A stretch of DNA of 57,651 bases, taken from the NCBI GenBank assembly GCA_937901395.1, contig CALCDB010000017.1, positions 1 through 57,651 on the forward strand, given 5' to 3'. The translations under genes and the position numbers were made by a program. Positions 13,457-50,696 of this stretch are shown here, piece by piece (the first letter of the stretch is position 1; each line of letters begins with the position of its first letter). This DNA is from an uncultured Verrucomicrobiota bacterium. GTDB taxonomy: Bacteria; Verrucomicrobiota; Kiritimatiellia; RFP12; UBA1067. Under the pieces are notes generated by a model. It did not search any database, was not told the DNA's origin, and worked only from the letters and a program-made list of their open reading frames with translations.

Positions 13457-13462
13457 ATAGCC

Positions 13463-36491: not shown

Positions 36492-37372
36492 GCAAATTCA
36501 GATTCAGGGGGCATAGGCATCGGCCTTTTGATCGCGAAGAACGACACGCCGAGAGAATTCCGCTTCGCTCGATCGTGCCTAATTTGGTTACTTCACTGGC
36601 CGCATGCGCCGGAATCACATCGATTGCGCTTTCTTCGGAAGGGCGTTTCTCCACTGCGCTATGGGCGCTATTGGTAGCCGCCGGCTGCGATGGAATGGAT
36701 GGCCGAATCGCGCGCTTGTTGAACGCGAGTTCGAAACTTGGCGCGGAACTTGATTCGCTTGCCGACTTCGTCAACTTCGGTGTCGCTCCGGCGATGTTCA
36801 TGTTTTACTGGCTGACGGGTAAACCTGGTGATGGCGCGGTGTCGAATACGATGGTGAGAGTGGTGTTAGGCTGTTCGCTGTATTATGCGATGTGCGATTG
36901 TTTTCGGTTGGCGCGTTTCAATACGATGCTTGAACAGGAGACCGCGCCATATTGGAAGCACTTCTTCACTGGCGTCCCCGCGCCTGGCGGCTGTTGGATG
37001 GTGCTTTCGCCTGCGATCCTCGCGGAGGAATTAAAAGCGAATGGATCCTCACTATCAATCGCCAACTTCATGCAAAATCCATGGACGGGTATCTTCATGT
37101 TGCTGTTCGTGGGTTCGCTGATGGCTTCGCGCTTGCCGACGATATCGCTCAAGCATCTGCATATCCACCGTACTTGGCTACCAGTCGTGCTGGCGGGGTT
37201 GCTGTTGCTGATTGCCTTCATGGTGTCAAACTTCTGGCTCACGGTCGGCTTCGCGGGGCTTCTTTATATTTTGACGATTCCAATTACGGGATTCATCTTC
37301 ATAAGAGTGCGCGCGAAGTATGCGCAGAATGAGTCTAATATCGCGCTTGACGCGAACGCAAAGAAAGTGTAA
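36488..37372 (+). CDS. pssA: CDP-diacylglycerol--serine O-phosphatidyltransferase
   Basis: CDP-alcohol phosphatidyltransferase motif DGMDGRIARLLNASSKLGAELDSLAD. Polytopic membrane protein with ATGA overlap to infC. Confidence 0.85.
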   Translation: MSKFRFRGHRHRPFDREERHAERIPLRSIVPNLVTSLAACAGITSIALSSEGRFSTALWALLVAAGCDGMDGRIARLLNASSKLGAELDSLADFVNFGVAPAMFMFYWLTGKPGDGAVSNTMVRVVLGCSLYYAMCDCFRLARFNTMLEQETAPYWKHFFTGVPAPGGCWMVLSPAILAEELKANGSSLSIANFMQNPWTGIFMLLFVGSLMASRLPTISLKHLHIHRTWLPVVLAGLLLLIAFMVSNFWLTVGFAGLLYILTIPITGFIFIRVRAKYAQNESNIALDANAKKV

Positions 37373-37418
37373 AATACCAACATTAAATTTCTACTATTTC
37401 TAAGGAGGTAAAAGTTAA

Positions 37419-38138
37419 ATGAATAAGCATATCAAGTTCGGTCTTATGGCAGTGGCGCTCGCTATGGTCGCGCCGGCCATCGCGCAGCAAGGTGAAGTAG
37501 TCGAGAATGAAGATGAAGTCGTGGGTTGGACGCCTATCGCGTTTGGTCTCGCTTCGCCAGTTCAGTTGCCTTGGGGGCATGCGAAGTGGGATGTGTTTGG
37601 TCTCGATCTCAACTTGCTCTATTCTGGCGCGCCGAAGATGTATGGTCTTGGCATCGGCGGCTTGGCGATGACTACGGCCGATGATATGATGGGATTGCAG
37701 GTTTCCGGGCTTTGCAACTGGAACGCCAAGGACGTGTATGGTATGCGCGTTACTCTCGGCGCCAACTTCTCGTTCGGCACGACGTACGGTTGGGATGCTG
37801 GCGGTTTCGCGTATCGCGAAGGGGAGATGTGGGGTCTCGACACCGAGTTCATCGGCTCGTATCAGAAGGATTTCTGGGGTGCGCAGTTCTCGGGCATCGT
37901 CAACTTCACGGATGGTCAGAGCTATGGCTGGACTACTTCCATCGGCGGCAACATGGCGCAGACGGCGTATGGCTTGCAGCTCGCGGGCGTCTTTAACTTC
38001 ACCGAAGAGCTTCACGGCTTCCAGATCGGCATCGTGAACTTCGCGAAGGAATGCCCATGGGGACTCCAGATCGGCATCGTTAATGTGATCATGGATAACA
38101 AGATCAAGGTGTTGCCAATCGTCAACTGCTATTTCTAA
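37419..38138 (+). CDS. secreted repeat protein with G-x-Q-(I/L/V)-(G/S/A)-G/I-x-N repeats
   Basis: AGGAGG SD and a signal peptide. Repeats: GLQVSGLCNWN, GAQFSGIVNFT, GLQLAGVFNFT, GFQIGIVNFA, GLQIGIVNVI. Confidence 0.7.
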   Translation: MNKHIKFGLMAVALAMVAPAIAQQGEVVENEDEVVGWTPIAFGLASPVQLPWGHAKWDVFGLDLNLLYSGAPKMYGLGIGGLAMTTADDMMGLQVSGLCNWNAKDVYGMRVTLGANFSFGTTYGWDAGGFAYREGEMWGLDTEFIGSYQKDFWGAQFSGIVNFTDGQSYGWTTSIGGNMAQTAYGLQLAGVFNFTEELHGFQIGIVNFAKECPWGLQIGIVNVIMDNKIKVLPIVNCYF

Positions 38139-39115
38139 TGGCGAAGGCGAATCCATATCTTAAGAAGGCGACGGGGGCTGGTAAAAAGGCCCCCGTATTG
38201 AATGGTGGGCATAATCGGCATCTTGGGCGCGGCTTGGATGGTCTGTTATCGAGCGCGAAGCCGGTAGCTGTATCTGGGGTAATCGCGCCGGCGCAAACGC
38301 CAAGCGCTTTCTTGGAACTCAAGATCAACGATATCGCGCGCAGCCCATATCAACCTCGTCGTGATTTCCGCGAGGAGGAATTGCGCGAATTGGCGGAATC
38401 GTTGAAGAACAATGGTTTGGTGCAGCCGCCAACCGTCCGCAAGAATTCAAACGGTAGGTATGAGCTTATCGCCGGTGAGCGTCGGCTTAGGGCGGCGCAG
38501 ATGGCGGGTTGGAGCAAGATTCGCGTTACGGTAGTAGAAGCCGATGATCAGACCGCGGCGGTAATGACCACTACGGAGAATCTTCAGCGCGAAGACCTCA
38601 ACCCCATCGAAGAGGCGGTATCGTATCGCACATTGCAGGATAAGTTCAAGTTGACGCAGGCGGAAGTCGCCGAGAAGGTAGGCAAGGGACGCGCCACGGT
38701 TGCCAACTCGATAAGATTGTTGGAGCTTCCTGAAGAAGTACGGCTACTTTTGGCCAATGCCACGATCTCCACCGGTCACGCGAAAGTGCTGCTTTCGGTC
38801 GATAGTGAGAAGGATCGTATCTTGCTCGCGCGTGATTGCGTGAACGAGCAACTTACCGTGCGTGCGCTTGAGAAGAAGGTGGCGAAACTGCATGCGCCTG
38901 TGGTTGAGCGCAAGGCGGGAACGCCGGATCTTTCAGATGCGTATGTGCGCAATCTCGTGGACAAGATGAAGCGCTATCTCGGGTGCGCGGTGCGGTTAAC
39001 GCCGGGCATTACCCATCAAAATGGTAATCATACCAAGGGCGTGTTGGAGATTGACTTCTTCGATAACGATGATCTCGACCGCATCATCCAGATGCTCGGC
39101 GTCAAGATCGATTGA
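38138..39115 (+). CDS. parB: ParB/Spo0J chromosome partitioning protein
   Basis: Motifs present: LGRGLDGLL, GLVQPPTVRK, YELIAGERRLRAA, and HTH LTQAEVAEKVGKGRATVANSIRLL. Confidence 0.9.
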   Translation: MAKANPYLKKATGAGKKAPVLNGGHNRHLGRGLDGLLSSAKPVAVSGVIAPAQTPSAFLELKINDIARSPYQPRRDFREEELRELAESLKNNGLVQPPTVRKNSNGRYELIAGERRLRAAQMAGWSKIRVTVVEADDQTAAVMTTTENLQREDLNPIEEAVSYRTLQDKFKLTQAEVAEKVGKGRATVANSIRLLELPEEVRLLLANATISTGHAKVLLSVDSEKDRILLARDCVNEQLTVRALEKKVAKLHAPVVERKAGTPDLSDAYVRNLVDKMKRYLGCAVRLTPGITHQNGNHTKGVLEIDFFDNDDLDRIIQMLGVKID

Positions 39116-39124
39116 TACTGAAAA

Positions 39125-39973
39125 ATGATTCCATTCCTTTTGGCGGCGGCTCTGAGCTTTTCTCCAGTGGATGCGCAGTTCGCATACGACGAAGCGAAGG
39201 AATTGGTAACGAACCACACTCCTCGTGACGCGGGGACGATTCGCGGCAAATTGGCCGCCAACCATATTCTGGATGTGGCGAGCGCGATTGGCGCGAATGT
39301 CCGGCGCGATGCCTTCAGGGCAGATGCGCCGAATGGCGCAATGGACTTCACCAACCTCTATGCGGAACTCAATGGCGCGAAGAATGATGATCGTTGGGTA
39401 GTAATCGTATCGCATTACGACACGAAGCGTGGGGTCGCGACGCCTGGCGCGAATGATGGGGCTTCGACTTCCGCGCTACTAATCGCGCTCGCCAGAGCGT
39501 ATATCAATTGGAAGGATAGTAAGGGCAATTTGCTATTGGTATGGACGGACGGCGAGGAGTGCATCAATAGTTATGGCGAGAATGACGGATTCTGGGGCTC
39601 TCGCAGAGCGGTGGAATATCTGCAAAGCAAAGATCGCAAGGTAATGGCGGTAATTTGCATCGATATGCTCGGCGATCGTGATTTGGATATTATGATTCCA
39701 TCCAATGTAACGCCGGAGCTCGCCTCAATTGCTATGCATGCGGCCAGAAGGGCTGGCTGCCAAGATGTAATTAGGCGGTCGGAATTCACGGTTAAGGATG
39801 ATCACATGGCATTCTTGGAAAAGGGATATAATTCCATCGTTTTAATCGACTTTAATTATGGTCCCAATAATGCATATTGGCATACGGCTGAAGATACGAT
39901 AGATAAGATTTCGGAGGCCTCGCTCCTTAAGAGCGGTAAGATACTTGCCGAATTGCTTAATATCTTACTTTAA
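39125..39973 (+). CDS. M28 family zinc peptidase (glutaminyl-cyclase-like)
   Basis: Motifs present: VVIVSHYDTK, GANDGASTSALLIALAR, LVWTDGEE. Confidence 0.8.
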   Translation: MIPFLLAAALSFSPVDAQFAYDEAKELVTNHTPRDAGTIRGKLAANHILDVASAIGANVRRDAFRADAPNGAMDFTNLYAELNGAKNDDRWVVIVSHYDTKRGVATPGANDGASTSALLIALARAYINWKDSKGNLLLVWTDGEECINSYGENDGFWGSRRAVEYLQSKDRKVMAVICIDMLGDRDLDIMIPSNVTPELASIAMHAARRAGCQDVIRRSEFTVKDDHMAFLEKGYNSIVLIDFNYGPNNAYWHTAEDTIDKISEASLLKSGKILAELLNILL

Positions 39974-40049
39974 TAGTAAGAAAGTAATGCCGACGCATTG
40001 GGCTTACCATATAGGCACTAAATCTTTTTGATGTCGTTATATCGCCTTT

Positions 40050-40093
40050 CCCATACCGTTGCATGGTTCATTCCATACCGTTGCATGATTCGT
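40050..40093. repeat. 22-bp tandem direct repeat x2 (CCATACCGTTGCATG core), followed by further GTTGCA(T) motifs to ~40130
   Basis: CCCATACCGTTGCATGGTTCAT at 40050-40071 and TCCATACCGTTGCATGATTCGT at 40072-40093. These are followed by CGATGCATGA, GCGTTGCATA and AGTTGCAC. Confidence 0.85.
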
Positions 40094-40137
40094 TGCTCCC
40101 CGATGCATGAGGCGTTGCATATAGTTGCACGGGTGAG

Positions 40138-40174
40138 AAATGGCGCCATTTGTGGGGTGAAATGCCGCCATTTC
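40138..40174. promoter_or_regulatory. pair of 14-16-bp palindromes (operator-like)
   Basis: Perfect palindrome AAATGGCGCCATTT at 40138-40151. Near-palindrome GAAATGCCGCCATTTC at 40159-40174. Their centres are 22 bp apart. Confidence 0.45.
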
Positions 40175-40460
40175 TGAGTCGTGCACTTGCTCAACATGAA
40201 AAATGCATATTTTTAGCATTATTTCGTCATATTTTAACTATCGATTCAACATACGCTCAAGTTTGCAGATTGGTGGTTGAAGAGGGAGATTTCGACAGGA
40301 TTAACTTCGATTGGAGATGTGGGAGGTTGAAGGTAAACAGTGGCATTTAAATTGATTTGTAAGATATTTCGCTTTCCTTTGCTGACCCAGTAGATATTAC
40401 CATTCTTTGGAAAAAATTGGAATAATATATTATTAGAATGAAACATGAAAGAAAAAATTT

Positions 40461-40469
40461 TGGTATAAT
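40461..40469 (+). promoter_or_regulatory. extended -10 element TGGTATAAT (island cassette copy 2)
   Basis: Lies 6 nt before ATG 40476. Part of the ~45-bp repeat shared with 11001-11045. Confidence 0.55.
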
Positions 40470-40475
40470 ATAGCC

Positions 40476-40514
40476 ATGTCGTATGAAGATGCAATAAAGA
40501 AAGCGGAGGAATGA
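40476..40514 (+). CDS. putative leaderless mini-ORF (12 aa, MSYEDAIKKAEE) translationally coupled to the next gene
   Basis: Its codons GCG GAG GAA TGA supply a GGAGGA SD and an ATGA overlap with ATG 40511. The peptide start is shared with the mini-ORF at 11017. Confidence 0.3.
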   Translation: MSYEDAIKKAEE

Positions 40515-41227
40515 GCGAGAATAGAGGCGATAGTGGGGCTAGAGATTCTAGAAGCTTTAGTTCTTCTAGAGGGACGATGGGTTCTAGTACCCCGCCTCGC
40601 ATTCTTAGGCCTCAGGCGAAATGGGAAGACCTTTATTTTTACAAAAAGGCGGTGGTTCTCGATCAGCTTACTTTTATTTTTTGTCAGAGGTTTTTGCCGA
40701 AGTATGGCGATAGAACAGTAGATCAAATGATCCAAGCGGCGCGGAGCGGAAAGCAAAATATCGTTGAGGGGCTTGCTGATGGCGTTACTTCGACCGAGAT
40801 GGAACTTAAGCTACTCAATGTCGCGAGGGCGAGTTTGAAGGAACTCAAGGAGGATTACCTCGATTATCTTAGACGGCATGAGCTTGAACTTTGGAATGCG
40901 AAGCATCCGCGCTATGATGGGCTATTGAAGTTTTGCCGTGAACGCAATGAGCTTGCCGACTATCAGCCGTTTTTGGGGAAGTGGACGGATGAGGAGCTTG
41001 CGAATTGTGCGAATACGCTTTGTCACATGGTAGATAAGATGATGTCGACATTTCTTGCGAAGAAGGAAAAGGATTTCACGGAGAATGGGGGAATTAAAGA
41101 GCGCATGATGGCAGCGCGTCTTGGTCGGCGACGGACGCAAAGCGAGGAGATTGCTGCGCTCAAGGCGGAAAATGCGTGGCTTAAGCACAAGATTGAAAGT
41201 TTGAAGCGGGGGATGGGAAATGATTGA
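40511..41227 (+). CDS. four-helix-bundle protein (23S rRNA intervening-sequence protein family) with C-terminal suffix/coiled-coil region
   Basis: LYFYKKAVVLDQLTFIFCQRFLP..DQMIQAARSGKQNIVEG..ELKLLNVARASLKEL matches the four-helix-bundle family pattern. The N-terminus is disordered and Ser/Arg-rich. Confidence 0.7.
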   Translation: MSENRGDSGARDSRSFSSSRGTMGSSTPPRILRPQAKWEDLYFYKKAVVLDQLTFIFCQRFLPKYGDRTVDQMIQAARSGKQNIVEGLADGVTSTEMELKLLNVARASLKELKEDYLDYLRRHELELWNAKHPRYDGLLKFCRERNELADYQPFLGKWTDEELANCANTLCHMVDKMMSTFLAKKEKDFTENGGIKERMMAARLGRRRTQSEEIAALKAENAWLKHKIESLKRGMGND

Positions 41228-41282
41228 TGCCGGATTGCTTTGTCGCAAGCTTCTTTTGCTAGCAGCCATATAGGGAAAGGTC

Positions 41283-43391
41283 GTGAGAGGAAATATAAGT
41301 TTGAGCGATAAGTGTATAAGCCCTGATTTTTATCATGCGAGCATTGCCGATTTTTGTTTGGCGAATGCTGGGAATGTCTTTGCTACTATTCAGACTACAA
41401 ATAATAATGACCTTAAGCAACAGCAATCTGCGACTTGGGAGACCGAGATCAAATGTCTGCAAGATGCGTTGCTTAGTATAAAGGATGGTTCGATTTCTTT
41501 TGAATATAATATTCCCCGTTTGGGTAAGCGTATCGATGTAGTAATTCTTGTTAATGGGATTGTCTTTGTTCTTGAATTCAAGGATAATGCAGATAAGATT
41601 TTGACGGAAGATGTGAATCAAGTTTGGGATTATGCGCTTGATCTTAAGAACTTCCATTCAACAAGTCATACTTTGCCGATAGTGCCGGTTTTGGTTGGAA
41701 CAAATTATGAGCTTAACGGATTTGGAGTGATTGAAAAAGGTGAGGGTGAAGTTTATCGTCCTTTGGTTATTAATGAGCAAGATATTGCATCTTTAATACA
41801 TGAAGTATCCCAGGTAATTGGGGCAAGTGATTTTGATTATACCGATTGGCGCAAAGGCGTTTATTCTCCAACGCCGACAATTATAGATGCTGCACGAACA
41901 TTATATTCGCGTCATAGTGTGGCTGAAATTAAGCGCGCAGATGCTGATGCAAAGAATCTAACTGATACGTGTGCTGCGATTGATAAAATCATTGAACGCG
42001 CTAAATGGAATAAAGAAAAGATAGTTTGTTTTGTAACTGGTGTGCCTGGTGCGGGCAAGACATTGGTTGGGTTAAATGTTGCAACCAGTTTTACTCCTGA
42101 AACAAGTAAATCCGCTGAAGATAATATGGCGGTATATCTTAGCGGGAATGGCCCTTTGGTGAAGATTCTCATTGAAGTTCTAACGCGAGATGCTTGCGCG
42201 AAGCAGAAAGCATTGATTGCTGCTGGCAAAATGGAGAAGAAGTCGGCGGAGACCAAAAAGAGCATTGGGTCGAAAATAAATAAGTTTATACAAGCAGTTC
42301 ATCATTTCAGAGACGCTTATCTTATTGGCATTAAAGTTGACAATGGTGAGATTGTGCCGGATGAAAATTATTGGGGTTCACCTGAGAGCGCAAAGCATAA
42401 GTGGTGTCCACCTGAGCATATAGCAATCTTTGATGAAGCTCAGCGAGCATGGAATCATGAAATGCTGTTTGATTTCATGAAGCGCAAGAAGCATTTTGAT
42501 GGCTTTCCGATGAGTGAACCAGAGTTTTTAATTTCCTGCATGGATCGTCGCGATGATTGGGCGGTTGTGGTTTGCTTAGTCGGTGAGGGTCAGGAAATTA
42601 ATCGTGGTGAGATGGGAATAAATGGGTGGGTTGAGGCGTTGCAAAATAGATTCTCGAATTGGAAGGCGTGTATTTCGGAGGAAATGTTTGACGAACGATT
42701 TGGCGCAAAAGAGTCGCTGACGAAGTTAGAAGCAGAGGGGCGTATTGAGCGCTCAAAAGATTTGCATTTAAGTGTAAGTTTGCGAAGCTTTAGAAGCGGG
42801 CATTTAGCGTCATTCGTTCAATCGGTCTTAGATCACGATATTGAAAACGCTAAAGAAACATATAATAAGCTTGAAAAGTATCCGATTGTATTGACGCGTG
42901 ATATTGATAAGGCTAAAAGTTGGCTTCGGGTGCGTGCTCGTGGTACGGAGAGATATGGGCTTGTTGTAAGTTCGCAAGCTTATCGATTGAAACCAATGGC
43001 AATTGATGTTCGTGTTAAGGCAGACCCTGTCCTTTGGTTTCTAAATGATTATACAGATATTCGTAGTTCCTATTACATGGAAGATGTTGCGACTGAGTTT
43101 GATATTCAAGGGTTGGAATTGGATTGGGTTGGCGTTGTTTGGGATGGTGATTTCCGTAGTATGGGCAGTGATTGGGCGAATTTTAGCTTCAAAGGCAGCA
43201 AATGGCAAAAGGTCAATAAAGAGGAGCGCAAGCAGTATCAGAAGAATGCTTATCGTGTGCTTTTAACTCGTGCTCGGCAGGGAATGGTAATTTGTGTGCC
43301 CAAAGGAAGCGACGACGATCCAACCCGCAAGCCAGCATTTTATGATTCAACATATAACTATCTCAAGTCGCTTGGAATGAAAGAGATATAG
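41283..43391 (+). CDS. PD-(D/E)xK nuclease-like N-domain fused to DUF2075 (Schlafen-type) P-loop ATPase/helicase
   Basis: N-domain GKRIDVVILVNGIVFVLEFKD (D..ExK). Walker A VTGVPGAGKTLVG and Walker B IAIFDEAQRAW. Also VVCLVGEGQEINRGE and YRVLLTRARQGMVICVP. GTG start with an AGGGAAAGG SD. Confidence 0.8.
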   Translation: MRGNISLSDKCISPDFYHASIADFCLANAGNVFATIQTTNNNDLKQQQSATWETEIKCLQDALLSIKDGSISFEYNIPRLGKRIDVVILVNGIVFVLEFKDNADKILTEDVNQVWDYALDLKNFHSTSHTLPIVPVLVGTNYELNGFGVIEKGEGEVYRPLVINEQDIASLIHEVSQVIGASDFDYTDWRKGVYSPTPTIIDAARTLYSRHSVAEIKRADADAKNLTDTCAAIDKIIERAKWNKEKIVCFVTGVPGAGKTLVGLNVATSFTPETSKSAEDNMAVYLSGNGPLVKILIEVLTRDACAKQKALIAAGKMEKKSAETKKSIGSKINKFIQAVHHFRDAYLIGIKVDNGEIVPDENYWGSPESAKHKWCPPEHIAIFDEAQRAWNHEMLFDFMKRKKHFDGFPMSEPEFLISCMDRRDDWAVVVCLVGEGQEINRGEMGINGWVEALQNRFSNWKACISEEMFDERFGAKESLTKLEAEGRIERSKDLHLSVSLRSFRSGHLASFVQSVLDHDIENAKETYNKLEKYPIVLTRDIDKAKSWLRVRARGTERYGLVVSSQAYRLKPMAIDVRVKADPVLWFLNDYTDIRSSYYMEDVATEFDIQGLELDWVGVVWDGDFRSMGSDWANFSFKGSKWQKVNKEERKQYQKNAYRVLLTRARQGMVICVPKGSDDDPTRKPAFYDSTYNYLKSLGMKEI

Positions 43392-43412
43392 AGTTGCATT
43401 GAGTGTAGTGGA

Positions 43413-45089
43413 ATGAGCGGAAGCAGTCGAGAAATATCTTCTATGGGAGTAAGCCTACCAGCAATCAGGGGTAGGAGTAGAATTAAGACAATAATTTCGC
43501 GCGACGGTGGATTTTCTGACAAGGAATTGTTGCTAGACTGGGACTGGCAGAAGAATAGTGAAAGACCTGAGAATTATACAAAGCATAGCAGTTTTTATGT
43601 GTGGTGGAAGTGTCATGTGTGTGGATATGAATGGAAATCAAGAATCTCAAATCGTGTTAATAGACGAGGGTGCCCAGCATGTTCTGGTAGGGTGTTGCAT
43701 GTCGGGCACAATGATTTTGCGACAACAGAACCAGAACTTGCCAAAGAATGGCACCCTGTAAATAATGGATTATTGAGACCGACTGATGTTATGCGGGGGC
43801 AGGCGAGGTTAGTATGGTGGCTTTGCCCGAATGGGCATTCGTATCGGGCTTCGTTAAATAAGCGGACATCAGACAGAACAGGATGCCCGATTTGTAATAG
43901 TGGGCGGCAAACATCATTTCGAGAACAGGCATTTTACTACTACATCAAGAAGATATATCCTAGCGCGATTAGTCGGTATAAGCCAGATTGGCTAAAACGT
44001 ATGGAGCTTGATATTTACATCCCAGAGAAACGATTGGCGATTGAGTATGATGGGGCAGCATGGCATAAAATATCAAACTTTGATCGTGAACGGCTTAAGT
44101 ATGAGTTATGTACAAAACATGGTGTTAAACTTTGGCGTGTTAAAGAGCATATGCCAGAATCTGGTTATGGACTTGCGCATCAACTATTTAGTGTGCCTAA
44201 TGTGGAGACAGCGCACGGCTTTAAGACATTGTTGATGGTTGTCGTGTCGGCCCTGGATCCAAAGTGTAATATGTGGACAAAAAACAATCCACTTAAGGTA
44301 TGGACGGATGTTGATATTGATATTGAACGAGATCGTTATGAAATTAATCAATATCGGTTTGTGGTTAAGAACTCATTACAAGAGATGCGGCCAAATATTG
44401 CGAAGGAATGGCATCCGACGAAAAATGATGGATGGTCTCCAATTGGTCTTTCATGGAAGAGCGAACGAAAGGTTTGGTGGCTGTGTGACAAATGTGGCAA
44501 TGAATATGAAATGACGGTTGCACATCGTGTAACTGGTAATGGATGTCCAGTTTGTGCAAAAGAAAAGTTCGCAAGAACTTACCGTAAAAACCGAGTCAAT
44601 AAATATGGTGGAATAGTTGATTCAAAGTTACTTAATGAGTGGAATTACGAAAAAAATAAAGGTCTAACACCAGATGCATTCCCTAAAGGATCTAATGATA
44701 AGGTATGGTGGAAATGTGAGAAATGCGGATATGAATGGAAGGCGAAGATATCTAACCGACATCATGGAAGGGGGTGCCCATGTTGCTCAAATCGTATTGT
44801 GGTCAAGGGTAAAAATGACCTCTTGACGCTATATCCAGAATTGTGCAAGGAGTGGGATTACGAGAAGAATGGGTTATTATTGCCAAATCAGATTACTCCT
44901 GGAAGGAATGCTAAGGTTTGGTGGAAATGCTCTAAGTGCGGACATTCTTATGCGGCTCCACCTAATAGAAGAACTTCGCAAAGGTCTGGTTGTCGTAAAT
45001 GTGCTGATAAAATGATATGGGATATTCGTAGGGCTAATGTCTTAAAGCGCATGCAGGTTGGTCGAATTTCACAAAGTCTTAGTAATTAG
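43413..45089 (+). CDS. five-fold zinc-ribbon repeat protein with central Vsr/DUF559-like PD-(D/E)xK endonuclease core
   Basis: Five copies of (V)WW(K/L)C..CG..W......R.....GCP.C, for example VWWKCHVCGYEWKSRISNRVNRRGCPACSG. Central core is MELDIYIPEKRLAIEYDGAAWHK. The exact start is uncertain. Confidence 0.8.
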   Translation: MSGSSREISSMGVSLPAIRGRSRIKTIISRDGGFSDKELLLDWDWQKNSERPENYTKHSSFYVWWKCHVCGYEWKSRISNRVNRRGCPACSGRVLHVGHNDFATTEPELAKEWHPVNNGLLRPTDVMRGQARLVWWLCPNGHSYRASLNKRTSDRTGCPICNSGRQTSFREQAFYYYIKKIYPSAISRYKPDWLKRMELDIYIPEKRLAIEYDGAAWHKISNFDRERLKYELCTKHGVKLWRVKEHMPESGYGLAHQLFSVPNVETAHGFKTLLMVVVSALDPKCNMWTKNNPLKVWTDVDIDIERDRYEINQYRFVVKNSLQEMRPNIAKEWHPTKNDGWSPIGLSWKSERKVWWLCDKCGNEYEMTVAHRVTGNGCPVCAKEKFARTYRKNRVNKYGGIVDSKLLNEWNYEKNKGLTPDAFPKGSNDKVWWKCEKCGYEWKAKISNRHHGRGCPCCSNRIVVKGKNDLLTLYPELCKEWDYEKNGLLLPNQITPGRNAKVWWKCSKCGHSYAAPPNRRTSQRSGCRKCADKMIWDIRRANVLKRMQVGRISQSLSN

Positions 45090-45103
45090 ATAAGGGGAAA
45101 AAG

Positions 45104-45412
45104 ATGATTATTAAATGTTTAGAGTGTGGCCATGATGTGAGTGATAAGGCGATGGCGTGCCCAAATTGTGGTGCGCCAATTGCACAAACGCGCGATTACA
45201 CGCCAGTTCGTTATGATGTAAAAGCGGATGAGCAGTATGGGACATTTTGTTGGTGGTTAGGTTTTTTATTTAATCTATTTGGCATCCTAATTGGAGCGAT
45301 AATTTCTCGTGGATATGGCGCAAAGAAAGCATTTATTGGGATGTTGTGGAGCTGGCTGTTGTTCGCTATTTTAGCTATTGGCGTTGTTATACATGGGATG
45401 CGCACATATTGA
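45104..45412 (+). CDS. small zinc-ribbon membrane protein
   Basis: CLECG..x11..CPNCG zinc ribbon plus two TM helices, with an AAGGGGA SD. Same architecture as 11158..11472. Confidence 0.65.
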   Translation: MIIKCLECGHDVSDKAMACPNCGAPIAQTRDYTPVRYDVKADEQYGTFCWWLGFLFNLFGILIGAIISRGYGAKKAFIGMLWSWLLFAILAIGVVIHGMRTY

Positions 45413-45450
45413 TTTTCTCATTCAGTGACAGCGGTTCCGCATGGTGATTA

Positions 45451-46101
45451 ATGATTATTGTGTTTGAGATTGTACTTCTATTTGCACTTTTTGGTGCCGT
45501 TTTTGCGTTGCGACGATGGATTAGCAATCCAGCGACCATTGGCAAGTTAGGCGAAAGGGTAATTGCCAAGCGGTTGAGGGCGGGGTTGCCAAAAGATGAG
45601 TATTTGATTTTGAGTGATATTTATTTACCGATTGAGGATAATGCGACGACACAAATCGATCATGTGGTCGTAAGTAGATATGGGATCTTTGTTGTAGAGT
45701 CGAAGAATTATAGCGGATGGATTTTCGGAGATAAGGATTCGCCTAAGTGGACACAGACGATGTTCCGCAAGAAAAGCACTTTTCAGAATCCAATTCGTCA
45801 GAACTATCGCCATATTTGCGCCATAGCTGAAAATTTGGGAATTCCGAAAATGTATTTGAAAAGTGTGGTTGTGTTTACGGGGGACTGCGAATTCAAGACG
45901 GAAATGCCGGAATGTGTGGTTTATTCACACAAGGTCGCGACTTATATTTGCACATTTACCGAGCCAATCATTAATGAGAAGCAAGTGTCTGAAATAGCCG
46001 AGGTTATGCAAGAATGGAATCAATGTGTTACTGATGCGCAGCGAAAGAAGCATGTTAGCAATTTGAGGCGAAAGCATCAATTGCATGCCGAACTGCCTTA
46101 A
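45451..46101 (+). CDS. membrane-anchored NERD (nuclease-related domain) protein
   Basis: N-terminal TM helix, then GKLGERVIAKRL..YLILSDIYLP..QIDHVVVSRYGIFVVESKNYSGWI, the NERD D..ExK core. Confidence 0.8.
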   Translation: MIIVFEIVLLFALFGAVFALRRWISNPATIGKLGERVIAKRLRAGLPKDEYLILSDIYLPIEDNATTQIDHVVVSRYGIFVVESKNYSGWIFGDKDSPKWTQTMFRKKSTFQNPIRQNYRHICAIAENLGIPKMYLKSVVVFTGDCEFKTEMPECVVYSHKVATYICTFTEPIINEKQVSEIAEVMQEWNQCVTDAQRKKHVSNLRRKHQLHAELP

Positions 46102-46274
46102 TGTGCATTGTGGGCGATTCAGATAATTTGAGGGACATACCCTCGGAAAGGCAATAAAATCAGGGGGTTGGGAAAATTGAGGTTGGAAGGGGAAGAGAAG
46201 ACACGATTGGAAAGGTGGAAGAAGAGTTGGATGCGAAGAGCCAAAATATAATTTCACACGGAGACGGGAAAATA

Positions 46275-46283
46275 TGGTATAAT
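46275..46283 (+). promoter_or_regulatory. extended -10 element TGGTATAAT
   Basis: Lies 8 nt before ATG 46292. Confidence 0.55.
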
Positions 46284-46291
46284 TCTCGGCA

Positions 46292-47983
46292 ATGGATCAG
46301 ATTCTTCAGTTGTTAGTACAGAATGGCTATATCGATGAGGCCAGTGCGAAAGATCTTCAAGATCTTTCAAAGACGGAGTCGAAGACAGTTCGTCAGTTGG
46401 TCATTGACCAAGGGATTGTCGATGAGGATACTTTGTTGTCGGTGATGGCGGCGTATCAAGACACCGAGGCGATAGACTTGGGGTCGATGACGATAGAATC
46501 CGAAGTAACCGAGGCGATACCCGCATCCACTGCGCGGATGTATAATGTATTTCCGATTAGCAGTGATGATAGTTCGGTTACGTTGGTTACCTACGATCTT
46601 ATCGATCCGCGGATATCGGACGAGTTGCTGTTTTCGCTTTCGAAGGAAGTGAAGTTCGTCTTTGCGCGCGAGCAGGACGTAAGGGAGCGCATCGCGCAAT
46701 ACTATGGCGACTCAAACGATTCGGTCGCAGATATGATCAAGTCGTTGGGCGAGGGGATGACGGATGACGAGAGCCTCGCGGCGACGGCGAATTCGAACGA
46801 TATCGCCTCGATGGAGAATGCGGCGAATTCGAGCGCGATCGTGAAGTTCGTGAATTTAGTTTTGTATCAGGGGGTAGTGGATCACGCGGCGGATATTCAT
46901 ATCGAGCCATTTGAGAATGATTTCAAGATTCGTTATCGTGTAGATGGCGCGCTTTACGAGATGAAGGCGCCGGACGTTAAGATGGCGCCAGCGATTATTT
47001 CACGCGTGAAGATTTTGGCGAACTTGAATATCGCGGAGCGTCGCGTGCCGCAGGATGGGCGCATCGCGCTCACGGTCGCGGGAAGGCCGGTGGATTTGCG
47101 CGTTTCGTGCTTGCCGACTTCGCATGGCGAATCGGTGGTAATGCGTATTCTCGACCAGACCACGACATCGTTGGATTTGGAGAACGTTGGGTTGCCGGAA
47201 GACGTGTACGAGCAAATCACGATGGATATCGAGAAGCCGAATGGCATCTTCATCGTGACTGGTCCGACGGGTTCGGGCAAGACGACTACATTGTATTCGG
47301 TATTGCGGCGCATCAACACGATTGATTCGAAGTTGCTTACGGCGGAGGAGCCGGTTGAATACAACGTCGATGGAATCGTGCAAGTTCCGATTGATGCGCA
47401 TGCCGGCAATACCTTCGCGAAGGTGTTGCGCGCATTCTTGCGTCAAGACCCCGATATCATGATGATTGGAGAGATTCGTGATTTGGAGACGGCGGAAATC
47501 GCGGTCCAGGCGGCGCTCACTGGGCACTTCGTATTCTCCACTCTGCACACCAATGATGCGGCGGGCGCGGTAATGCGTTTGGTGGATATGAACGTTGCGC
47601 CATATTTGTTGTCTTCCACGCTGGAGGGTGTCTTGGGGCAGCGCTTGGTAAGAACCTGCTGCAAGGAATGCAAGCAAAGCTACGAGCCGGATGACGAGAC
47701 ATTGGAGCGCATCGAAATGACGCGCGATCAGATCGGCGGGCGTCCATTCTATTTCGGCAAGGGCTGCAAGACGTGTAACGGCACCGGATACAAGGGGCGC
47801 AAGGGGGTGTTCGAATATTTGCGGATGTCGAATCCATTGCGCGAGCTGGTGAACAACCGTGCGCCTACCTTGATTATTCGCGAGAAGGCGCGAGAGTTGG
47901 GGATGCGGACGATGCGTGAGGATGGTATACGTTCCATTCTCGACGGTTACACGACCGTTGACGAGGTATTGCGTTACACCTAA
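46292..47983 (+). CDS. GspE/PilB-family secretion/type IV pilus assembly ATPase
   Basis: N-terminal GSPII_E_N-like domain. Walker A GPTGSGKTTTLY, Asp box MIGEIRD, His box FSTLHTNDA, and tetracysteine CKECK..CKTCNGTG. Confidence 0.9.
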   Translation: MDQILQLLVQNGYIDEASAKDLQDLSKTESKTVRQLVIDQGIVDEDTLLSVMAAYQDTEAIDLGSMTIESEVTEAIPASTARMYNVFPISSDDSSVTLVTYDLIDPRISDELLFSLSKEVKFVFAREQDVRERIAQYYGDSNDSVADMIKSLGEGMTDDESLAATANSNDIASMENAANSSAIVKFVNLVLYQGVVDHAADIHIEPFENDFKIRYRVDGALYEMKAPDVKMAPAIISRVKILANLNIAERRVPQDGRIALTVAGRPVDLRVSCLPTSHGESVVMRILDQTTTSLDLENVGLPEDVYEQITMDIEKPNGIFIVTGPTGSGKTTTLYSVLRRINTIDSKLLTAEEPVEYNVDGIVQVPIDAHAGNTFAKVLRAFLRQDPDIMMIGEIRDLETAEIAVQAALTGHFVFSTLHTNDAAGAVMRLVDMNVAPYLLSSTLEGVLGQRLVRTCCKECKQSYEPDDETLERIEMTRDQIGGRPFYFGKGCKTCNGTGYKGRKGVFEYLRMSNPLRELVNNRAPTLIIREKARELGMRTMREDGIRSILDGYTTVDEVLRYT

Positions 47984-48816
47984 TGAAATTCTCGGTGCGG
48001 ATATGCCTAATCGCGCTTGCGATTTATTTGGCAGCGGCGATTTTTGGGGAGATACAATATCGCATTGCGGAATATAGGGATGTAACGGCGGCGTATAACA
48101 TAGTCGATGCGGAGCATCGTTACGAGCCGCCCAGCGCTCAACATTGGCTGGGCACGGATAATTTAGGACGAGACGTTGGGCTACGGGTAATTCAGGGGGC
48201 GCGAATCGCCTTTCACGTAGGCATAGTAACTTCGTTAATCGCAATTCCATTGGGTGTAATACTCGGCTTGTTGGGAGGATATTTTGGCGGTAAGACGGAT
48301 GCGATCGTAGTTTGGTTATGCGCTACGGTAGCATCGATGCCTGGGTTGCTGTTCATATTGGCGATTTCGTTAGTAGTAGGTCAGGGGTTGATGGGGATTT
48401 ATATGGGCATTGGGCTTACGACTTGGGTAAGCACCTGCAGAACCATTCGTGCGGAAGTAATGAAGCATAAGGATCGCGCCTACATTCAGGCCGCGCGAAC
48501 GCTTGGATATTCGCATGCGCGAATCATGTTTCGTCACATCTTGCCGAATGTGGCGCATATCATACTCATTCAATTTTCCATTCGCTTTCCCTCCGCGGTA
48601 TCAACGGAAGTGTTCATTTCCTTTTTAGGCATTGGGGTTCAGGGCGAGCCGAGTTGGGGGATCATGATCAATAATGCGCGAATGCGTCTTTGGCAGGGGG
48701 TTTGGTGGGAGATGACATTTACTACTCTCGCGATTTTCATTTTAGTATTAATCTTCAATCATCTTGCAGATTATCTACGAGATCGGTTAGACCCCGCGCT
48801 AAGAAATGAGAGGTAA
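47983..48816 (+). CDS. ABC transporter permease (DppC/OppC type)
   Basis: HWLGTDNLGRDV at the N-terminus, six TM segments, and the EAA-like loop IQAARTLGYSHARIMFRHILPN. Confidence 0.85.
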   Translation: MKFSVRICLIALAIYLAAAIFGEIQYRIAEYRDVTAAYNIVDAEHRYEPPSAQHWLGTDNLGRDVGLRVIQGARIAFHVGIVTSLIAIPLGVILGLLGGYFGGKTDAIVVWLCATVASMPGLLFILAISLVVGQGLMGIYMGIGLTTWVSTCRTIRAEVMKHKDRAYIQAARTLGYSHARIMFRHILPNVAHIILIQFSIRFPSAVSTEVFISFLGIGVQGEPSWGIMINNARMRLWQGVWWEMTFTTLAIFILVLIFNHLADYLRDRLDPALRNER

Positions 48817-48819
48817 AGT

Positions 48820-49602
48820 ATGTTAGCGATGAAACGTCCATTAGTGGTTTTCGACATTGAATCCACGGGACTCTCCCCGCGCAAGGATCGCATTATTGAA
48901 TTGGCGGCAGTCAAGGTTTTCCCAGACGGCAGGGAGGAAAAGCGTTGCTGGTTGGTTAATCCCACGGTTCATATTCCAGAAGAGACGACGTCGATTCACG
49001 GGATATCGGATGAAGACGTGAAGGAGTGTCCGACATTTGCAGATTATGCGAAGGAGATATTCGAGTTCTTTCGAGATTGCGATTTATCGGGTTTCAACAT
49101 AGATCGATTTGACGTTTCATGTCTTGAGGAAGAATTCGCGAGGGTAGGGTATAATTTTGGGGCGGCGTTGCGCAAGCATGTTGACGTGATGCGGTTATAT
49201 CATCGCAAGGAGAGGCGAGATCTATCGGCGGCGGTTGAGTTCTATTGTCATCGTTCGCATGATGGCGCGCATGGTGCCGAGGCCGATGCGGTTGCTACAT
49301 TGGACGTATTGAAGGCGCAACTTGAGCATTATGCCGATCTACCGAAGAGCGTGGACGAGATGGATGAATTCTTAGTTCCGCACGATCCATTGAACGCAGA
49401 TCGCAATGGGATGTTCCGCTGGCGCGATGGGGAATGGTGCATTAACTTCGGCAAGAAAAATGGGGAGAGTCTAAAGCGGATAATGCTGGAGGAGCCGAAT
49501 TTTCTCAAGTGGATGGTGAAGGGCGATTTCGATACCGATGCGCGTATGATCGCGGCCGATGCCTTAGAAGGACGCTTACCACCACCGCCGAAAAACGTAT
49601 GA
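48820..49602 (+). CDS. DEDDh 3'-5' exonuclease (DnaQ/epsilon-like) with C-terminal extension
   Basis: ExoI VVFDIESTGL, ExoII ..IHGISDEDV.. and ExoIII HGAEADAVAT. Confidence 0.85.
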   Translation: MLAMKRPLVVFDIESTGLSPRKDRIIELAAVKVFPDGREEKRCWLVNPTVHIPEETTSIHGISDEDVKECPTFADYAKEIFEFFRDCDLSGFNIDRFDVSCLEEEFARVGYNFGAALRKHVDVMRLYHRKERRDLSAAVEFYCHRSHDGAHGAEADAVATLDVLKAQLEHYADLPKSVDEMDEFLVPHDPLNADRNGMFRWRDGEWCINFGKKNGESLKRIMLEEPNFLKWMVKGDFDTDARMIAADALEGRLPPPPKNV

Positions 49603-50696
49603 AGCGATACAAGCGCATCATATACACGATATTGATTTTTCTACCGGCGACCTTAATTACCGCGGTTGGCGCCTATTTGGTATTCACTTTCGTTCCGTCC
49701 GCGATAAAGAACGCGCCACGAAGGATAAGTTTGGAGTATCGTACATACGCCGAGAATTTGGCGGAGAATCCCGCGGCGGCCACATATATCGGCGAGCGCA
49801 AGCGGGGATGGCGGCAGATTGGCAAGATTGATGGACATTCTTGGGGAATCGACAAGGATGATGGCAACAAGTTGGCAGTGGTTTGGCTCAAGATGGCGGA
49901 TGATGAGTATCGGGCAATTGAGACGACGCGACTGAAGGCGTTTCCATACGAGATCGTATTCTACGGCGGGGGATTACTGGTAGCAATAATACTCTTTTGG
50001 CTGTCGGCGATAGCGGCAGAATATTTTCATAAGTTCATACGTGAGCGCGATGATTTTCTCGCGGCGGTAGCGCATGATTTGACGACGCCACTATTGGGGA
50101 TGCGGCTTATCATTGGCAGGGATGAAATGGAGGCGAAACGACTCACGGAGCGCATGTTGGTAATCGTGAATAATCTCAAGGAATTCCTAAGGTTAGATGG
50201 TCAGAAGGCGAAGCCAAAGCGCGAGCGCATCGATCTCGAGGCATTGGCGCACGAAGCATATACGCTTTTTTCGGCAGATTACGAGGCGGAGGAATGCGGG
50301 GCGGTGGAATTCGACAATTCGGAATTGGGAGGAAAGGCACTCATGGCATTGGGGGACGAGGGAATGACGCTACAGATTCTCTGGAATCTATTTGGCAACG
50401 ATCTAAAGTACGCAGCGCCATTTGGCAAGGTGAGGGTAAAGTTTTTGGCGGCGGAGAAGGGGATGGTTGGCGTGGAGTTCATAGACGATGGGCCAGGAAT
50501 GAGCTTATTGGCGCGTCATCGGGCATTTGATCGATACTATCGGGCGCAGACTGTACTGGCATCCGGCAAAGGCGGTTTCGGCATCGGGTTATGCAACGCG
50601 CGTGAACATGCAATCGCAATGGGAGGGATGCTTTCGTTGCGAAAGAATCGTCCCCATGGTTGTGTATTTACCTTGAAGTTGCCAATCGCTTCGTGA
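49599..50696 (+). CDS. sensor histidine kinase (orphan)
   Basis: The start is moved to ATG 49599 (ATGA overlap with the upstream stop; MKRYKRIIYTIL.. TM helix). H-box FLAAVAHDLTTPL, N-box LFGNDLKY, G-boxes DDGPGM and GGFGIGL. Confidence 0.8.
   Translation: MKRYKRIIYTILIFLPATLITAVGAYLVFTFVPSAIKNAPRRISLEYRTYAENLAENPAAATYIGERKRGWRQIGKIDGHSWGIDKDDGNKLAVVWLKMADDEYRAIETTRLKAFPYEIVFYGGGLLVAIILFWLSAIAAEYFHKFIRERDDFLAAVAHDLTTPLLGMRLIIGRDEMEAKRLTERMLVIVNNLKEFLRLDGQKAKPKRERIDLEALAHEAYTLFSADYEAEECGAVEFDNSELGGKALMALGDEGMTLQILWNLFGNDLKYAAPFGKVRVKFLAAEKGMVGVEFIDDGPGMSLLARHRAFDRYYRAQTVLASGKGGFGIGLCNAREHAIAMGGMLSLRKNRPHGCVFTLKLPIAS

Follow-up and report, generated by a model that had tools for sequence, protein, structure and literature searches.

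A chromosomal defence/mobile-gene hotspot between an M28 peptidase gene and pilB in a Kiritimatiellia bacterium, probably holding separate nuclease modules

The interval that separates the M28 peptidase gene from pilB in the chromosome of this gut Kiritimatiellia bacterium is probably a hotspot for defence and mobile genes, in which separate modules are held side by side. The locus would accordingly consist of a resident gene and three separate nuclease modules, mostly catalogued already. A preliminary description of the window (the whole stretch of 57,651 nt that was analysed) had proposed one five-gene system. This proposal was not upheld, because the five genes were not found together elsewhere in the sampled loci and a sister strain swaps g2-g5 while it keeps g1.

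Locus layout and cassette exchange

The five same-strand open reading frames described previously were all found, the intergenic gaps of 55, 21, 14 and 38 nt were confirmed, and the peptide motifs quoted for them were all present in the translations. The features of the locus are as follows.

39974-40510, + strand: non-coding leader; hotspot frame outside the swapped cassette, matching the sister strain
40511-41227, + strand: g1, 238 aa, four-helix-bundle gene
41283-43391, + strand: g2, 702 aa, start codon GTG, nuclease-helicase
43413-45089, + strand: g3, 558 aa, putative multi-finger endonuclease
45104-45412, + strand: g4, 102 aa, zinc-ribbon protein with two hydrophobic segments
45451-46101, + strand: g5, 216 aa, NERD-domain protein
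41284-46243, + strand: variable cassette (g2-g5 and 142 nt), bounded by blastn breakpoints against the sister strain
46244-46291, + strand: pilB promoter region, kept in the sister strain and outside the cassette

In the blastn comparison with the sister strain, homology ends at 41283, the first base of g2, and restarts at 46244. The flanks, the leader (96.7-98.6% identity) and g1 are common to both strains, and in place of g2-g5 the sister strain has a different 14.4-kb stack comprising PDC-S05, a DrmMII-like methylase, PDC-S57, two further methylases and a REase_II-like AAA_5 protein. No repeats were found at the cassette junctions. Since the sister cassette is made of separately catalogued systems stacked on one strand, stacks of genes in one direction are what this site normally holds. 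The frame is formed by the leader and g1 at the left and the pilB promoter at the right, with an exchangeable cassette between them. Cassettes would be swapped by homologous recombination via the flanks. The cassette of the present strain would carry three stacked modules (g2; g3; g4 with g5), each working alone.

The acquired look of the locus was borne out, but its bounds, as set by the sister-strain breakpoints, are 41284-46243 (g2-g5) and not 39974-46291. Its reading as a defence-type island also stood, as did the presence of three different PD-(D/E)xK-superfamily nuclease domains together with a DUF2075 ATPase, and the domain calls for the five proteins held in profile searches. The insert is indeed AT-richer, GC falling from ~0.54 to 0.38-0.45 across the region. 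The GC of g2-g5 is 0.415-0.421 versus 0.50-0.55 for the flanking genes, and g1 has a GC of 0.483 and a GC3 of 0.515, versus 0.42 and 0.37 in g2-g4.

Since the sister strain keeps g1 (98% identical) and then continues into different cargo, g1 is a frame gene of the hotspot that marks its fixed left edge, and is not cargo. It matches the four-helix-bundle model TIGR02436 at 28.4 bits (cut-off 24) and 4helix_suffix TIGR04258 at E 3e-15, passing both NCBIfam cut-offs, and is a member of this four-helix-bundle/23S rRNA IVS family, which is related to DGR Avd. A role of g1 as a DGR component was considered and rejected, the island having neither a reverse transcriptase nor a template/variable repeat pair. 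A homologue with 57% identity is solitary in Prevotella nigrescens, and g1 was never found near relatives of g2, g3 or g5 in the loci sampled outside the species.

The leader contains an extended -10 motif, TGGTATAAT, at 40461-40469. The motif was described earlier as a single promoter; it is present there but not single, with five copies in the window against 0.42 expected, and an identical second copy lies at 46275-46283, ahead of pilB. In this organism TGGTATAAT serves as the general extended -10 signal. The leader had also been called repeat-laden, which was overstated: it has a ~22-nt direct repeat pair, an imperfect inverted repeat of 26 nt and a single weak TRF array. Searches of the leader for Rfam matches and tRNA gave none. 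No intergenic terminators were found between the five genes, and because of this and of their tight spacing a single transcript from the g1 promoter may cover them all. Such co-transcription reflects stacking at the locus, not one machine.

The three nuclease modules

The g2 protein consists of an N-terminal PD-(D/E)xK nuclease and a DUF2075/Schlafen-type SF1 helicase-like ATPase, and is a member of PDC-S41, a candidate phage defence of one gene (Payne et al. 2024 preprint 10.1101/2024.01.29.577857). It aligns along its whole length with the PADLOC PDC-S41 profile (E 1.4e-262, positions 5-653 of 657), and its SLFN-g3_helicase/DUF2075 domain (PF09848) was found at E 9e-77. Residues D85, E98 and K100, the Walker A motif GVPGAGKT and the DEAQ motif are invariant in 40 homologues. 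In the AF2 model (pLDDT 81) the N-terminal domain has the order αβββαβ, with weak matches to HSDR_N and NERD, and the best Foldseek matches of the model were SLFN11, RecD, SLFN14, Upf1 and Dna2. The PDC systems, each of one gene or several, are candidates obtained by guilt-by-embedding. PDC-S41 members are abundant in Bacteroidota, and g2 from Kiritimatiellia is only ~55% identical to these. Close relatives of g2 stand alone in varied contexts. Nine foreign loci with g2 relatives were examined: those at 80-82% identity have no g1, g3, g4 or g5 nearby, the Bacteroides relatives (54% identity) lie on a mobilisable element with other partners, and the four IMG/VR relatives are without g1, g3 and g5; at L142, which is one of these four, a weak g4-like ORF lies 6.5 kb away. 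Within the hotspot reading as a whole, it is likely that g2 works autonomously as a single-gene module. Nhi (Staphylococcus epidermidis SERP2475) and Nhi-like (Millman et al. 2022), validated defences that each act as a single gene, also carry an N-terminal PD-(D/E)xK nuclease and an SF1-type helicase with DUF2075 on a single chain, and g2 has kept the catalytic D/E/K residues as well as Walker A and B. However, the PADLOC Nhi model matches g2 only in the P-loop region (E 5e-4), with no useful sequence similarity. By analogy with Nhi, g2 would detect replication intermediates of foreign origin and degrade them, with the SF1-type ATPase motor and the N-terminal nuclease as its tools.

Judged by its sequence, g3 is most likely a free-standing EDxHD/Vsr-type endonuclease gene, either selfish and homing-type or domesticated. 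Five DUF4379 repeats (E 3e-92) form treble-clef fingers, two of them N-terminal and three C-terminal of a nuclease core. The assignment of this core as a nuclease rests on sub-threshold profile matches: it is weakly similar to the Vsr-clan Pfam models (MTES_1575/DUF559/Vsr), and the only solved structure matched by its profile in PDB was 3r3p, the EDxHD/Vsr homing endonuclease I-Bth0305I (PMC3239194). The residues E198, D200, E211, D213, H218 and K229 of the core are invariant, and g3 also matches PHROG HNH/homing endonuclease families. A Foldseek search with the whole g3 model found the fingers only, and not the nuclease core. The fingers would bind DNA and the central nuclease would cut it. 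A CapR/DUF4379/DUF723-repeat outgroup of the EDxHD/Vsr homing endonucleases has recently been described in phage introns (PMC12350094). It shares with g3 several ~60-aa DUF4379 modules and a Vsr-type nuclease domain; however, its nuclease is C-terminal whereas that of g3 is central (two fingers, core, three fingers), and g3 is a putative homing gene on a bacterial chromosome. No intron or intein was found around g3, and the free-standing state is common among homing endonuclease genes. Only four phage records matched g3. A single-T deletion causes a frameshift of g3 in 4/8 conspecific contigs, in which the other four genes are intact. Among 18 foreign loci with g3 relatives, none has g1, g2 or g4 nearby, and one (L025) has a NERD gene, immediately upstream of two g3-like genes. 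Relatives of g3 also occur as tandem copies and next to housekeeping genes.

The remaining two genes, g4 and g5, are to be taken as one unit, the split form of a single-chain zinc-ribbon/TM/NERD membrane protein predicted from sequence, because fused single-chain relatives exist, both genes co-occur in another lineage and g5 has no zinc ribbon of its own. Zn_Ribbon_1 and two hydrophobic segments (residues 47-70 and 74-101) were found in g4, which aligns over its full length to residues 65-165 of the single-chain NERD proteins P0308 and P0315. In these proteins the g5-homologous part comes directly after the g4-like extension. Most relatives of g5 have either such an N-terminal extension or a C-terminal Zn_ribbon_Top1. 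The NERD domain of g5 (E 2e-34) follows an N-terminal hydrophobic segment (residues 1-25), and D70, H71, E83 and K85 are invariant. In the other lineage (L044), a g4 homologue (60% identity) adjoins a g5 homologue (77%). The pair would make a membrane-anchored nuclease that acts on nucleic acid at the inner membrane. NERD proteins have been experimentally linked to defence, and HEC-02B, ZwsA and the N-termini of PglW and MAD6 share the NERD domain with g5 (triad D...ExK). In contrast to these named proteins, g5 is devoid of VHS and S4 domains and of a kinase, is membrane-anchored and is paired with a separate zinc-ribbon/2-TM protein; it lacks the ABC ATPase partner of HEC-02B and scores far below the cut-off of the PglW/MAD6 profiles (40 bits vs 460). 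Relatives of g5 were found on 1730 plasmid records, 1459 of which are conjugative plasmids, and they frequently stand alone next to genes for partition or replication.

Co-occurrence and alternative readings

Outside the species, the five genes were never found together in the sampled loci (18 for g3, 9 for g2 and 13 for g5), a modest number in which small partners that have diverged strongly may have escaped tblastn at E 1e-3. At most three of the five genes occur in any one foreign locus, and g3 never occurs with g2. The five-gene combination is unnamed, as had been claimed, but its content is not undescribed, since g2 is PDC-S41, and g3 and g4 with g5 are of known kinds. Both outcomes that the preliminary description had named as speaking against a single system, namely that the genes never co-occur and that they are assigned to named systems, are thus largely what was found. 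In conspecific contigs the five genes are always together (~99% identity), so that these population data cannot separate them.

The one relevant recurrence is L044, where a DUF2075 gene (50% identity) lies with the g5 and g4 homologues within 4.7 kb, and it leaves a small chance that the genes cooperate. It is possible but unlikely that g2 and the split NERD pair act as one system into which g3 has intruded as a selfish endonuclease gene. In that case foreign nucleic acid would be processed or sensed by the DUF2075 motor, with the membrane NERD nuclease as a second effector. Consistent with this, L044 repeats the grouping with other genes in between and no g3, in L045 and L046 the last 4 nt of a UvrD-type SF1 helicase gene overlap a NERD gene (77% identity), on a plasmid a NERD gene and a DUF3883 gene next to QatA overlap, the L142 g2 relative has its weak g4-like ORF, and the validated system HEC-02 pairs NERD with an ATPase partner. 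However, the closest g2 relatives are without NERD or g4 nearby, the L044 g2 is no closer than the Bacteroides relatives that likewise have no NERD, and a DUF2075 gene is absent from nine other loci with g5 relatives and from three annotated plasmid loci. Furthermore, g2 has its own nuclease, PADLOC models PDC-S41 as a single-gene system, and a single recurrence in defence islands is no more than chance would allow.

There is also only a slim chance that the locus has no immune role and that g2, g3 and g4/g5 are selfish or addiction-type genes, such as a homing endonuclease and nucleases derived from plasmids, or DNA-repair factors, which have built up at a recombination-prone site. The resemblance of g3 to homing endonucleases would fit this, as would the mostly conjugative-plasmid and often solitary occurrence of g5-like NERD genes, the candidate status of PDC-S41 and the absence of PHROG matches for g1 or g2. 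Against it, phage protection has been shown in experiments for proteins built like g2, defence roles have been demonstrated for NERD proteins, and the alternative cargo at the site is restriction-modification systems and PADLOC candidates.

Very improbable is that the five genes, or g2-g5, are one integrated undescribed multi-nuclease defence operon: one strand, tight spacing, the lack of an intergenic terminator, one upstream promoter motif, the constant association in conspecific contigs and the uniformly low GC of g2-g5, swapped as a single block against the sister strain, agree with it, but g1 stays during cargo exchange and differs in composition, foreign loci hold at most three of the genes and never g3 beside g2, roughly every second conspecific contig has a frameshifted g3 next to intact copies of the others, g2 falls into a single-gene candidate that is already catalogued, and the sister cassette, too, is a one-strand series of systems catalogued separately.

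Separately from the hotspot reading, which is preferred here, cooperation of a NERD protein with a helicase is plausible from the L044 grouping and from the overlap of NERD genes with UvrD or DUF3883 helicase-type genes elsewhere.

An exchangeable cassette within a fixed frame

The region between the M28 peptidase gene, which ends at 39973, and pilB, which starts at 46292, carries five plus-strand ORFs (g1 to g5) with intergenic gaps of 55, 21, 14 and 38 nt. These ORFs and gaps lie exactly where they had been placed in the preliminary description, which proposed the whole interval 39974-46291 as one operon and a candidate undescribed defence system, and its domain calls for all five genes were upheld by profile and segment analysis.

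Genes between the M28 peptidase gene and pilB
40511-41227, plus strand: g1, 238 aa, four-helix bundle and suffix domain
41283-43391, plus strand: g2, 702 aa, GTG start, DUF2075/SLFN-g3 helicase domain
43413-45089, plus strand: g3, 558 aa, five DUF4379 fingers with a weak MTES_1575/Vsr-clan core between them
45104-45412, plus strand: g4, 102 aa, zinc ribbon and two hydrophobic segments
45451-46101, plus strand: g5, 216 aa, NERD domain with an N-terminal hydrophobic anchor

The GC content falls from about 0.54 to 0.38-0.45 over the region, and the dip noticed earlier was confirmed both by the profile and by the values per gene (0.415-0.421 for g2-g5 vs 0.50-0.55 for flanking genes). The leader ahead of g1 (39974-40510), previously called repeat-laden, contains a few short repeats only, and it matched no Rfam family and held no tRNA.

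Exact-sequence look-ups of g2, M28 and P0001 had no match; by the members of its protein clusters, the window belongs to a Kiritimatiellia MAG. A 69.6-kb contig of a sister strain (L003 and L129; ENA ERZ27247118 k141_468164) has the same ParB-M28 and pilB flanks, and was aligned to the window by blastn.

Segments shared with the sister strain
36001-40176: left flank, 98.6% identity
40137-41283: leader and g1, 96.7% identity, ending on the first base of g2
46244-50000: pilB side, 98.9% identity, beginning 48 nt 5' of pilB and including its promoter

Between the two breakpoints (L003 10769 to L129 9960) the sister strain has instead a 14.4-kb set of unrelated genes, all on the same strand.

Cargo of the sister strain at the same site
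PDC-S05 (ORF6N), by PADLOC
DrmMII-like methylase and HATPase_c_3 protein, by PADLOC
436-aa protein, no family given
PDC-S57 (T5orf172), by PADLOC
two Dcm-type methylases, by PADLOC
type II REase-like (REase_II-like) AAA_5 protein, by PADLOC
781-aa protein, no family given, and three small ORFs

Since the homology stops at 41283 and resumes at 46244, the exchangeable cassette is 41284-46243 (g2-g5), which is narrower than the island as first delimited. The comparison demonstrates a hotspot structure at the M28-pilB site, in which g1 and the leader are a conserved frame outside the cassette. A search for recombination sites found no repeats at the cassette junctions, and exchange would proceed by homologous recombination in the flanks. 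No empty site, with M28 directly beside pilB, was obtained; the PilB cluster member P0166 comes from another species with other synteny. If this reading is correct, the site would be a clean natural example of a defence hotspot, whose frame gene stays fixed while its cargo is exchanged at boundaries resolved to the base pair, and it would come from Kiritimatiellia, a little-studied phylum of the gut.

The protein encoded by g1 passes both NCBIfam curated cut-offs (TIGR04258, 55.9 bits vs 40; TIGR02436, 28.4 bits vs 24). Its assignment to the frame is also argued for by its near-genomic composition (GC 0.483 and GC3 0.515; GC3 is about 0.37 in g2-g4), by a 57% identical homologue in Prevotella nigrescens that stands alone, with a prolyl oligopeptidase gene on one side and msrAB on the other, and by the absence of g1 relatives beside relatives of g2, g3 or g5 in the loci examined. 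A role of g1 as an Avd-type accessory of a diversity-generating retroelement (DGR) was ruled out because no RT domain occurs among the island proteins. Long direct repeats, which a template/variable pair would form, were not found.

The predicted nuclease-helicase and the zinc-ribbon/NERD pair

The preliminary description recognised no named system here. The PADLOC HMM for PDC-S41, however, matches g2 at full length (E 1.4e-262, 870.8 bits; residues 16-702 on profile positions 5-653 of 657), and by this match g2 is a member of that catalogued single-gene candidate. The PDC systems are 145 single- and multi-gene candidates derived from 'guilt-by-embedding' (10.1101/2024.01.29.577857); the name PDC-S41 was found neither in the literature nor in the PADLOC preprint supplements searched. 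The DUF2075 match (PF09848) covers residues 247-673, and D85, E98, K100, the Walker A motif GVPGAGKT and the DEAQ box are invariant in 40 g2 homologues. In the AlphaFold model (pLDDT 81) the N-terminal domain has the order αβββαβ, and the best PDB matches found by Foldseek (SLFN11, RecD, SLFN14, Upf1 and Dna2) are of the SF1 helicase/Schlafen type; no sequence relatives of g2 were found in the PDB. The N-terminal domain gave weak matches to HSDR_N and NERD, and its membership of the PD-(D/E)xK group is supported. It was not called as NERD, the hhalign comparison being not significant (probability 1%, E 0.049).

The same architecture, in which a PD-(D/E)xK nuclease precedes a DUF2075 helicase in one protein, is found in Nhi and the Nhi-like protein of Millman, each of which defends as a single protein. 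At the sequence level, however, g2 is not a member of Nhi, as the PADLOC Nhi model aligned at E 5e-4 to residues 235-272 only and had no passing stretch. By analogy with the proposal for Nhi, g2 would degrade foreign replication intermediates by its helicase and nuclease activities. The neighbours of g2 relatives vary among the loci compared (L001, L002, L127/L128, L139-L142 and L044), with no conserved partner gene: an 80% identical relative stands alone between queH and HU-HIG genes, an 82% identical one has unrelated genes downstream, and an abundant Bacteroides relative (L127/L128; listed in 362 collection blocks) lies on a mobilisable element with a relaxase and MobC. NERD, DUF4379 and four-helix genes are absent near four relatives in IMG/VR. 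As a PDC-S41 candidate with Nhi-like architecture, g2 would be a lead ready for cloning.

Two further details of these loci were recorded. The Bacteroides relative sits in a recurring neighbourhood, between AAA_5 and T5orf172 proteins and followed by a Fic or a 341-aa protein. In L142, one of the four IMG/VR loci, the g2 relative (42% identity) has a weak g4-like ORF 6.5 kb upstream (1218-1451; 33% identity across 95 aa, E 8e-8).

The NERD profile (PF08378) matched g5 with 118.7 bits (gathering cut-off 22.1). The members of the g5 family are NERD proteins anchored at the N-terminus, in which H71 and the D...(D/E)xK triad of D70, E83 and K85 are invariant; no sequence relatives of g5 were found in the PDB. 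Most g5 relatives bear a C-terminal Top1-type zinc ribbon, which g5 itself lacks. Among the best 120 g5 relatives, 14 form a group of 339-366 aa, and six of the seven long relatives read have the order membrane segment, CxxC...CxxC ribbon, TM helices and NERD domain. The alignment to this extension takes in g4 as a whole: residues 2-102 of g4 align to residues 70-165 of one compared protein (P0315; 32% identity, E 7e-9), and residues 2-97 to residues 65-161 of another (P0308; 28% identity, E 2e-8); in both, the part homologous to g5 follows directly after the g4-like extension at 64-65% identity. The alignments thus show g4 and g5 as one predicted unit, the split form of single-chain NERD proteins. 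In L044, a locus from outside this species, homologues of both adjoin in reversed order.

Gene order in L044, 955-6640 (GCA_045599105.1, JAZRVL010000014.1)
DUF2075 protein, 50% identical to g2
341-aa protein
141-aa lipoprotein
NERD protein, 77% identical to g5
zinc-ribbon/2-TM protein, 60% identical to g4
Fic/Bro-N protein

Remote g4-like ribbon proteins (33-39% identity) at 80 metagenome loci had no NERD neighbour, which indicates that the pairing is specific to this NERD clade; that scan had the generic zinc ribbon at the N-terminus as its seed, most of the proteins recovered were unrelated ribbon proteins, and it serves as a background control only. The viral scan contained no g4 relatives. 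Relatives of g5 occur in 1730 plasmid records, mostly conjugative, where they are usually solitary genes. NERD nucleases of other architectures, HEC-02 and ZwsA, have experimental defence roles. HEC-02 combines an ABC ATPase with NERD, whereas the island has no ABC ATPase and, for g5, PADLOC gave nothing but weak PglW matches. With the NCBIfam profiles of two kinase-containing proteins, g5 scored 40.3 bits for MADS MAD6 (cut-off 460) and 20.6 bits for BREX PglW (cut-off 990), in each case in the N-terminal NERD region only. By analogy, g4 and g5 would act as a membrane-bound nuclease. If the modular reading is right, the split and fused forms would show a zinc ribbon to be a requirement of membrane NERD nucleases, and the pair would be a tractable two-gene unit.

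The probable multi-finger endonuclease

The g3 family is large, with 7451 proteins at E ≤ 1e-5 among the 8000 candidates scored, and has E198, D200, E211, D213, H218 and K229 invariant. Five DUF4379 stretches were aligned in g3, conspecific copies gave a faint DUF723 match, and the core (residues ~165-260) has finger 2 on one side and finger 3 on the other. The one solved structure matched by a core-only profile was 3r3p (E 4.7e-4), which holds the catalytic domain of the prototypic EDxHD/Vsr homing endonuclease, I-Bth0305I (PMC3239194). Against Pfam, the core sequences matched MTES_1575 (13/13), DUF559 (4/13), Vsr (2/13) and in some cases DUF2726, all below cut-offs; in PHROG, the families matched carry the annotation HNH or homing endonuclease. 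In the Foldseek search with the whole model the fingers dominated and the core had no significant match.

It has been reported that homing endonucleases of phage introns consist of three to five DUF4379/CapR/DUF723-like modules of ~60 aa and an EDxHD/Vsr domain, that thousands of their relatives are unannotated, and that genes for homing endonucleases commonly stand free (PMC12350094). The protein encoded by g3 is built of the same blocks, but its nuclease lies between fingers 2 and 3 and not C-terminal to the repeats; no intron model matched around it. Neighbourhoods within 10 kb were compared at 18 foreign loci whose g3 relatives are full-length, from Kiritimatiellia, Clostridia, Bacilli, Muribaculaceae and Saccharibacteria. 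None of these has a relative of g1, g2 or g4, and a NERD gene occurs in one (L025). The relatives lie in unrelated surroundings, with neighbours that include AAA_14/DUF4143 ATPases, a β-galactosidase, GlmS and an aminotransferase, and tandem g3 copies occur. On these sequence comparisons, g3 is probably an autonomous multi-finger Vsr/EDxHD-type endonuclease of homing type, which would bind DNA through its finger array and cut it with a Vsr-type site. It would be a bacterial free-standing member of a large and barely recognised DUF4379-repeat EDxHD/Vsr group, whose fingers may be useful for DNA recognition.

No site was seen to be polymorphic for presence and absence of the gene. A single-T deletion (GATTGG to GATGG, codon ~193, region 43989) is present in four of eight conspecific contigs (L005, L007, L008 and L010), is identical across different sequencing runs and leaves ORFs of 193 aa and 362 aa, with g4 and g5 intact. 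The cluster counts agree, the 193-aa fragment being on nine contigs and intact g3 on eight. Since a restart at M197 could keep a core-containing ORF, loss of function is not certain.

Some further features of g3 and its relatives were observed. At residues 1-30 (43413-43500) the first zinc finger of most relatives is absent, and residues ~11-25 align to a finger with lost cysteines, so the N-terminus, which lies 21 nt past g2, looks degenerate. Among solved structures, the DUF4379 fingers (43521-45017) have as their only relatives the kinetoplastid mitoribosomal proteins mS66 and mt-SAF33, which are RNA-contacting zinc modules. In L025 (6949-12241; a rumen Bacilli MAG), the stretch from glmS to an aminotransferase gene holds two g3-like genes in tandem, preceded immediately by a gene for a NERD protein that bears a Top1 zinc ribbon.

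Probable stacking of modules, promoter motifs and the second low-GC region

The island is of defence type and does hold three PD-(D/E)xK nucleases, as first described, but its reading as a single undescribed system is not supported, in view of the sister-strain swap, the PDC-S41 match and the lack of conserved co-occurrence. The largest foreign subset is that of L044 (g2, g5 and g4, in another order and with other genes between), which repeats the combination of DUF2075, NERD and g4-like proteins and is the sole foreign locus with three of the five. Cooperation of g2, g4 and g5 could be read from it, and NERD-helicase partnerships do exist, as indicated by a 77% identical NERD gene overlapping a UvrD-type helicase gene (L045/L046) and by another overlapping a DUF3883 gene beside QatA. 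We nevertheless consider such cooperation unlikely: g2 of the window is closest to solitary genes and the g2 relative of L044 is a distant clade member, so any association would be convergent, and L044 is a single case. The fuller version, in which g2 and the split g4/g5 came together on at least two occasions (at this locus and in L044) and g3 is an embedded homing-type gene or a third domesticated effector, appears slightly less likely still; in it, a cytoplasmic SF1 motor-nuclease would couple to a membrane-anchored nuclease. A system of all five genes is highly improbable: the genes are inseparable within the species, but the foreign loci sampled never hold all five.

If stacked modules are the correct reading, the locus would represent no new immune mechanism. 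Its value would come mainly from a hotspot that is cleanly resolved, from the NERD pair in its split form and from a bacterial DUF4379/Vsr endonuclease that stands free. The result is also a warning that close spacing of genes on one strand of an island need not mean a single system.

In L045 (485-3912) and L046, the gene for a 932-aa UvrD helicase with a Top1-type zinc ribbon shares its last 4 nt with the g5 homologue; the two may form a helicase-NERD unit of two genes.

The motif TGGTATAAT is present at 40461-40469, ahead of g1, but is not unique as had been thought: the window contains five copies (11002, 13448, 40461 and 46275 on the plus strand, 52195 on the minus strand) against 0.42 expected. 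It therefore looks like the standard extended -10 promoter of this genome. No terminators were found between the genes, which makes co-transcription of g1-g5 from the g1 promoter plausible. The identical copy at 46275-46283 ends 8 nt ahead of the pilB ATG, which suggests that the pilB mRNA is leaderless or near-leaderless; the sister strain has TGATATAAT at this position. A 12-codon ORF (MSYEDAIKKAEE, then stop; 40476-40514) starts 7 nt past the -10 motif ahead of g1, and its TGA overlaps the g1 ATG (ATGA), so that coupling to g1 as a leaderless upstream ORF is possible.

A second low-GC region (~10000-13500, GC ~0.41), with two TGGTATAAT motifs, is probably the 'Island 1' of the preliminary description. 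The lipoprotein and Fic genes found both here and in L044 were rejected as real partners of g4, as the lipoproteins are non-homologous and the Fic proteins share a generic motif only.

Genes of the second low-GC region
11158-11472: distant g4 paralogue, zinc ribbon and 2 TM (28% identity, E 9e-6)
11524-11982: lipoprotein
12332-13411: Fic-domain protein
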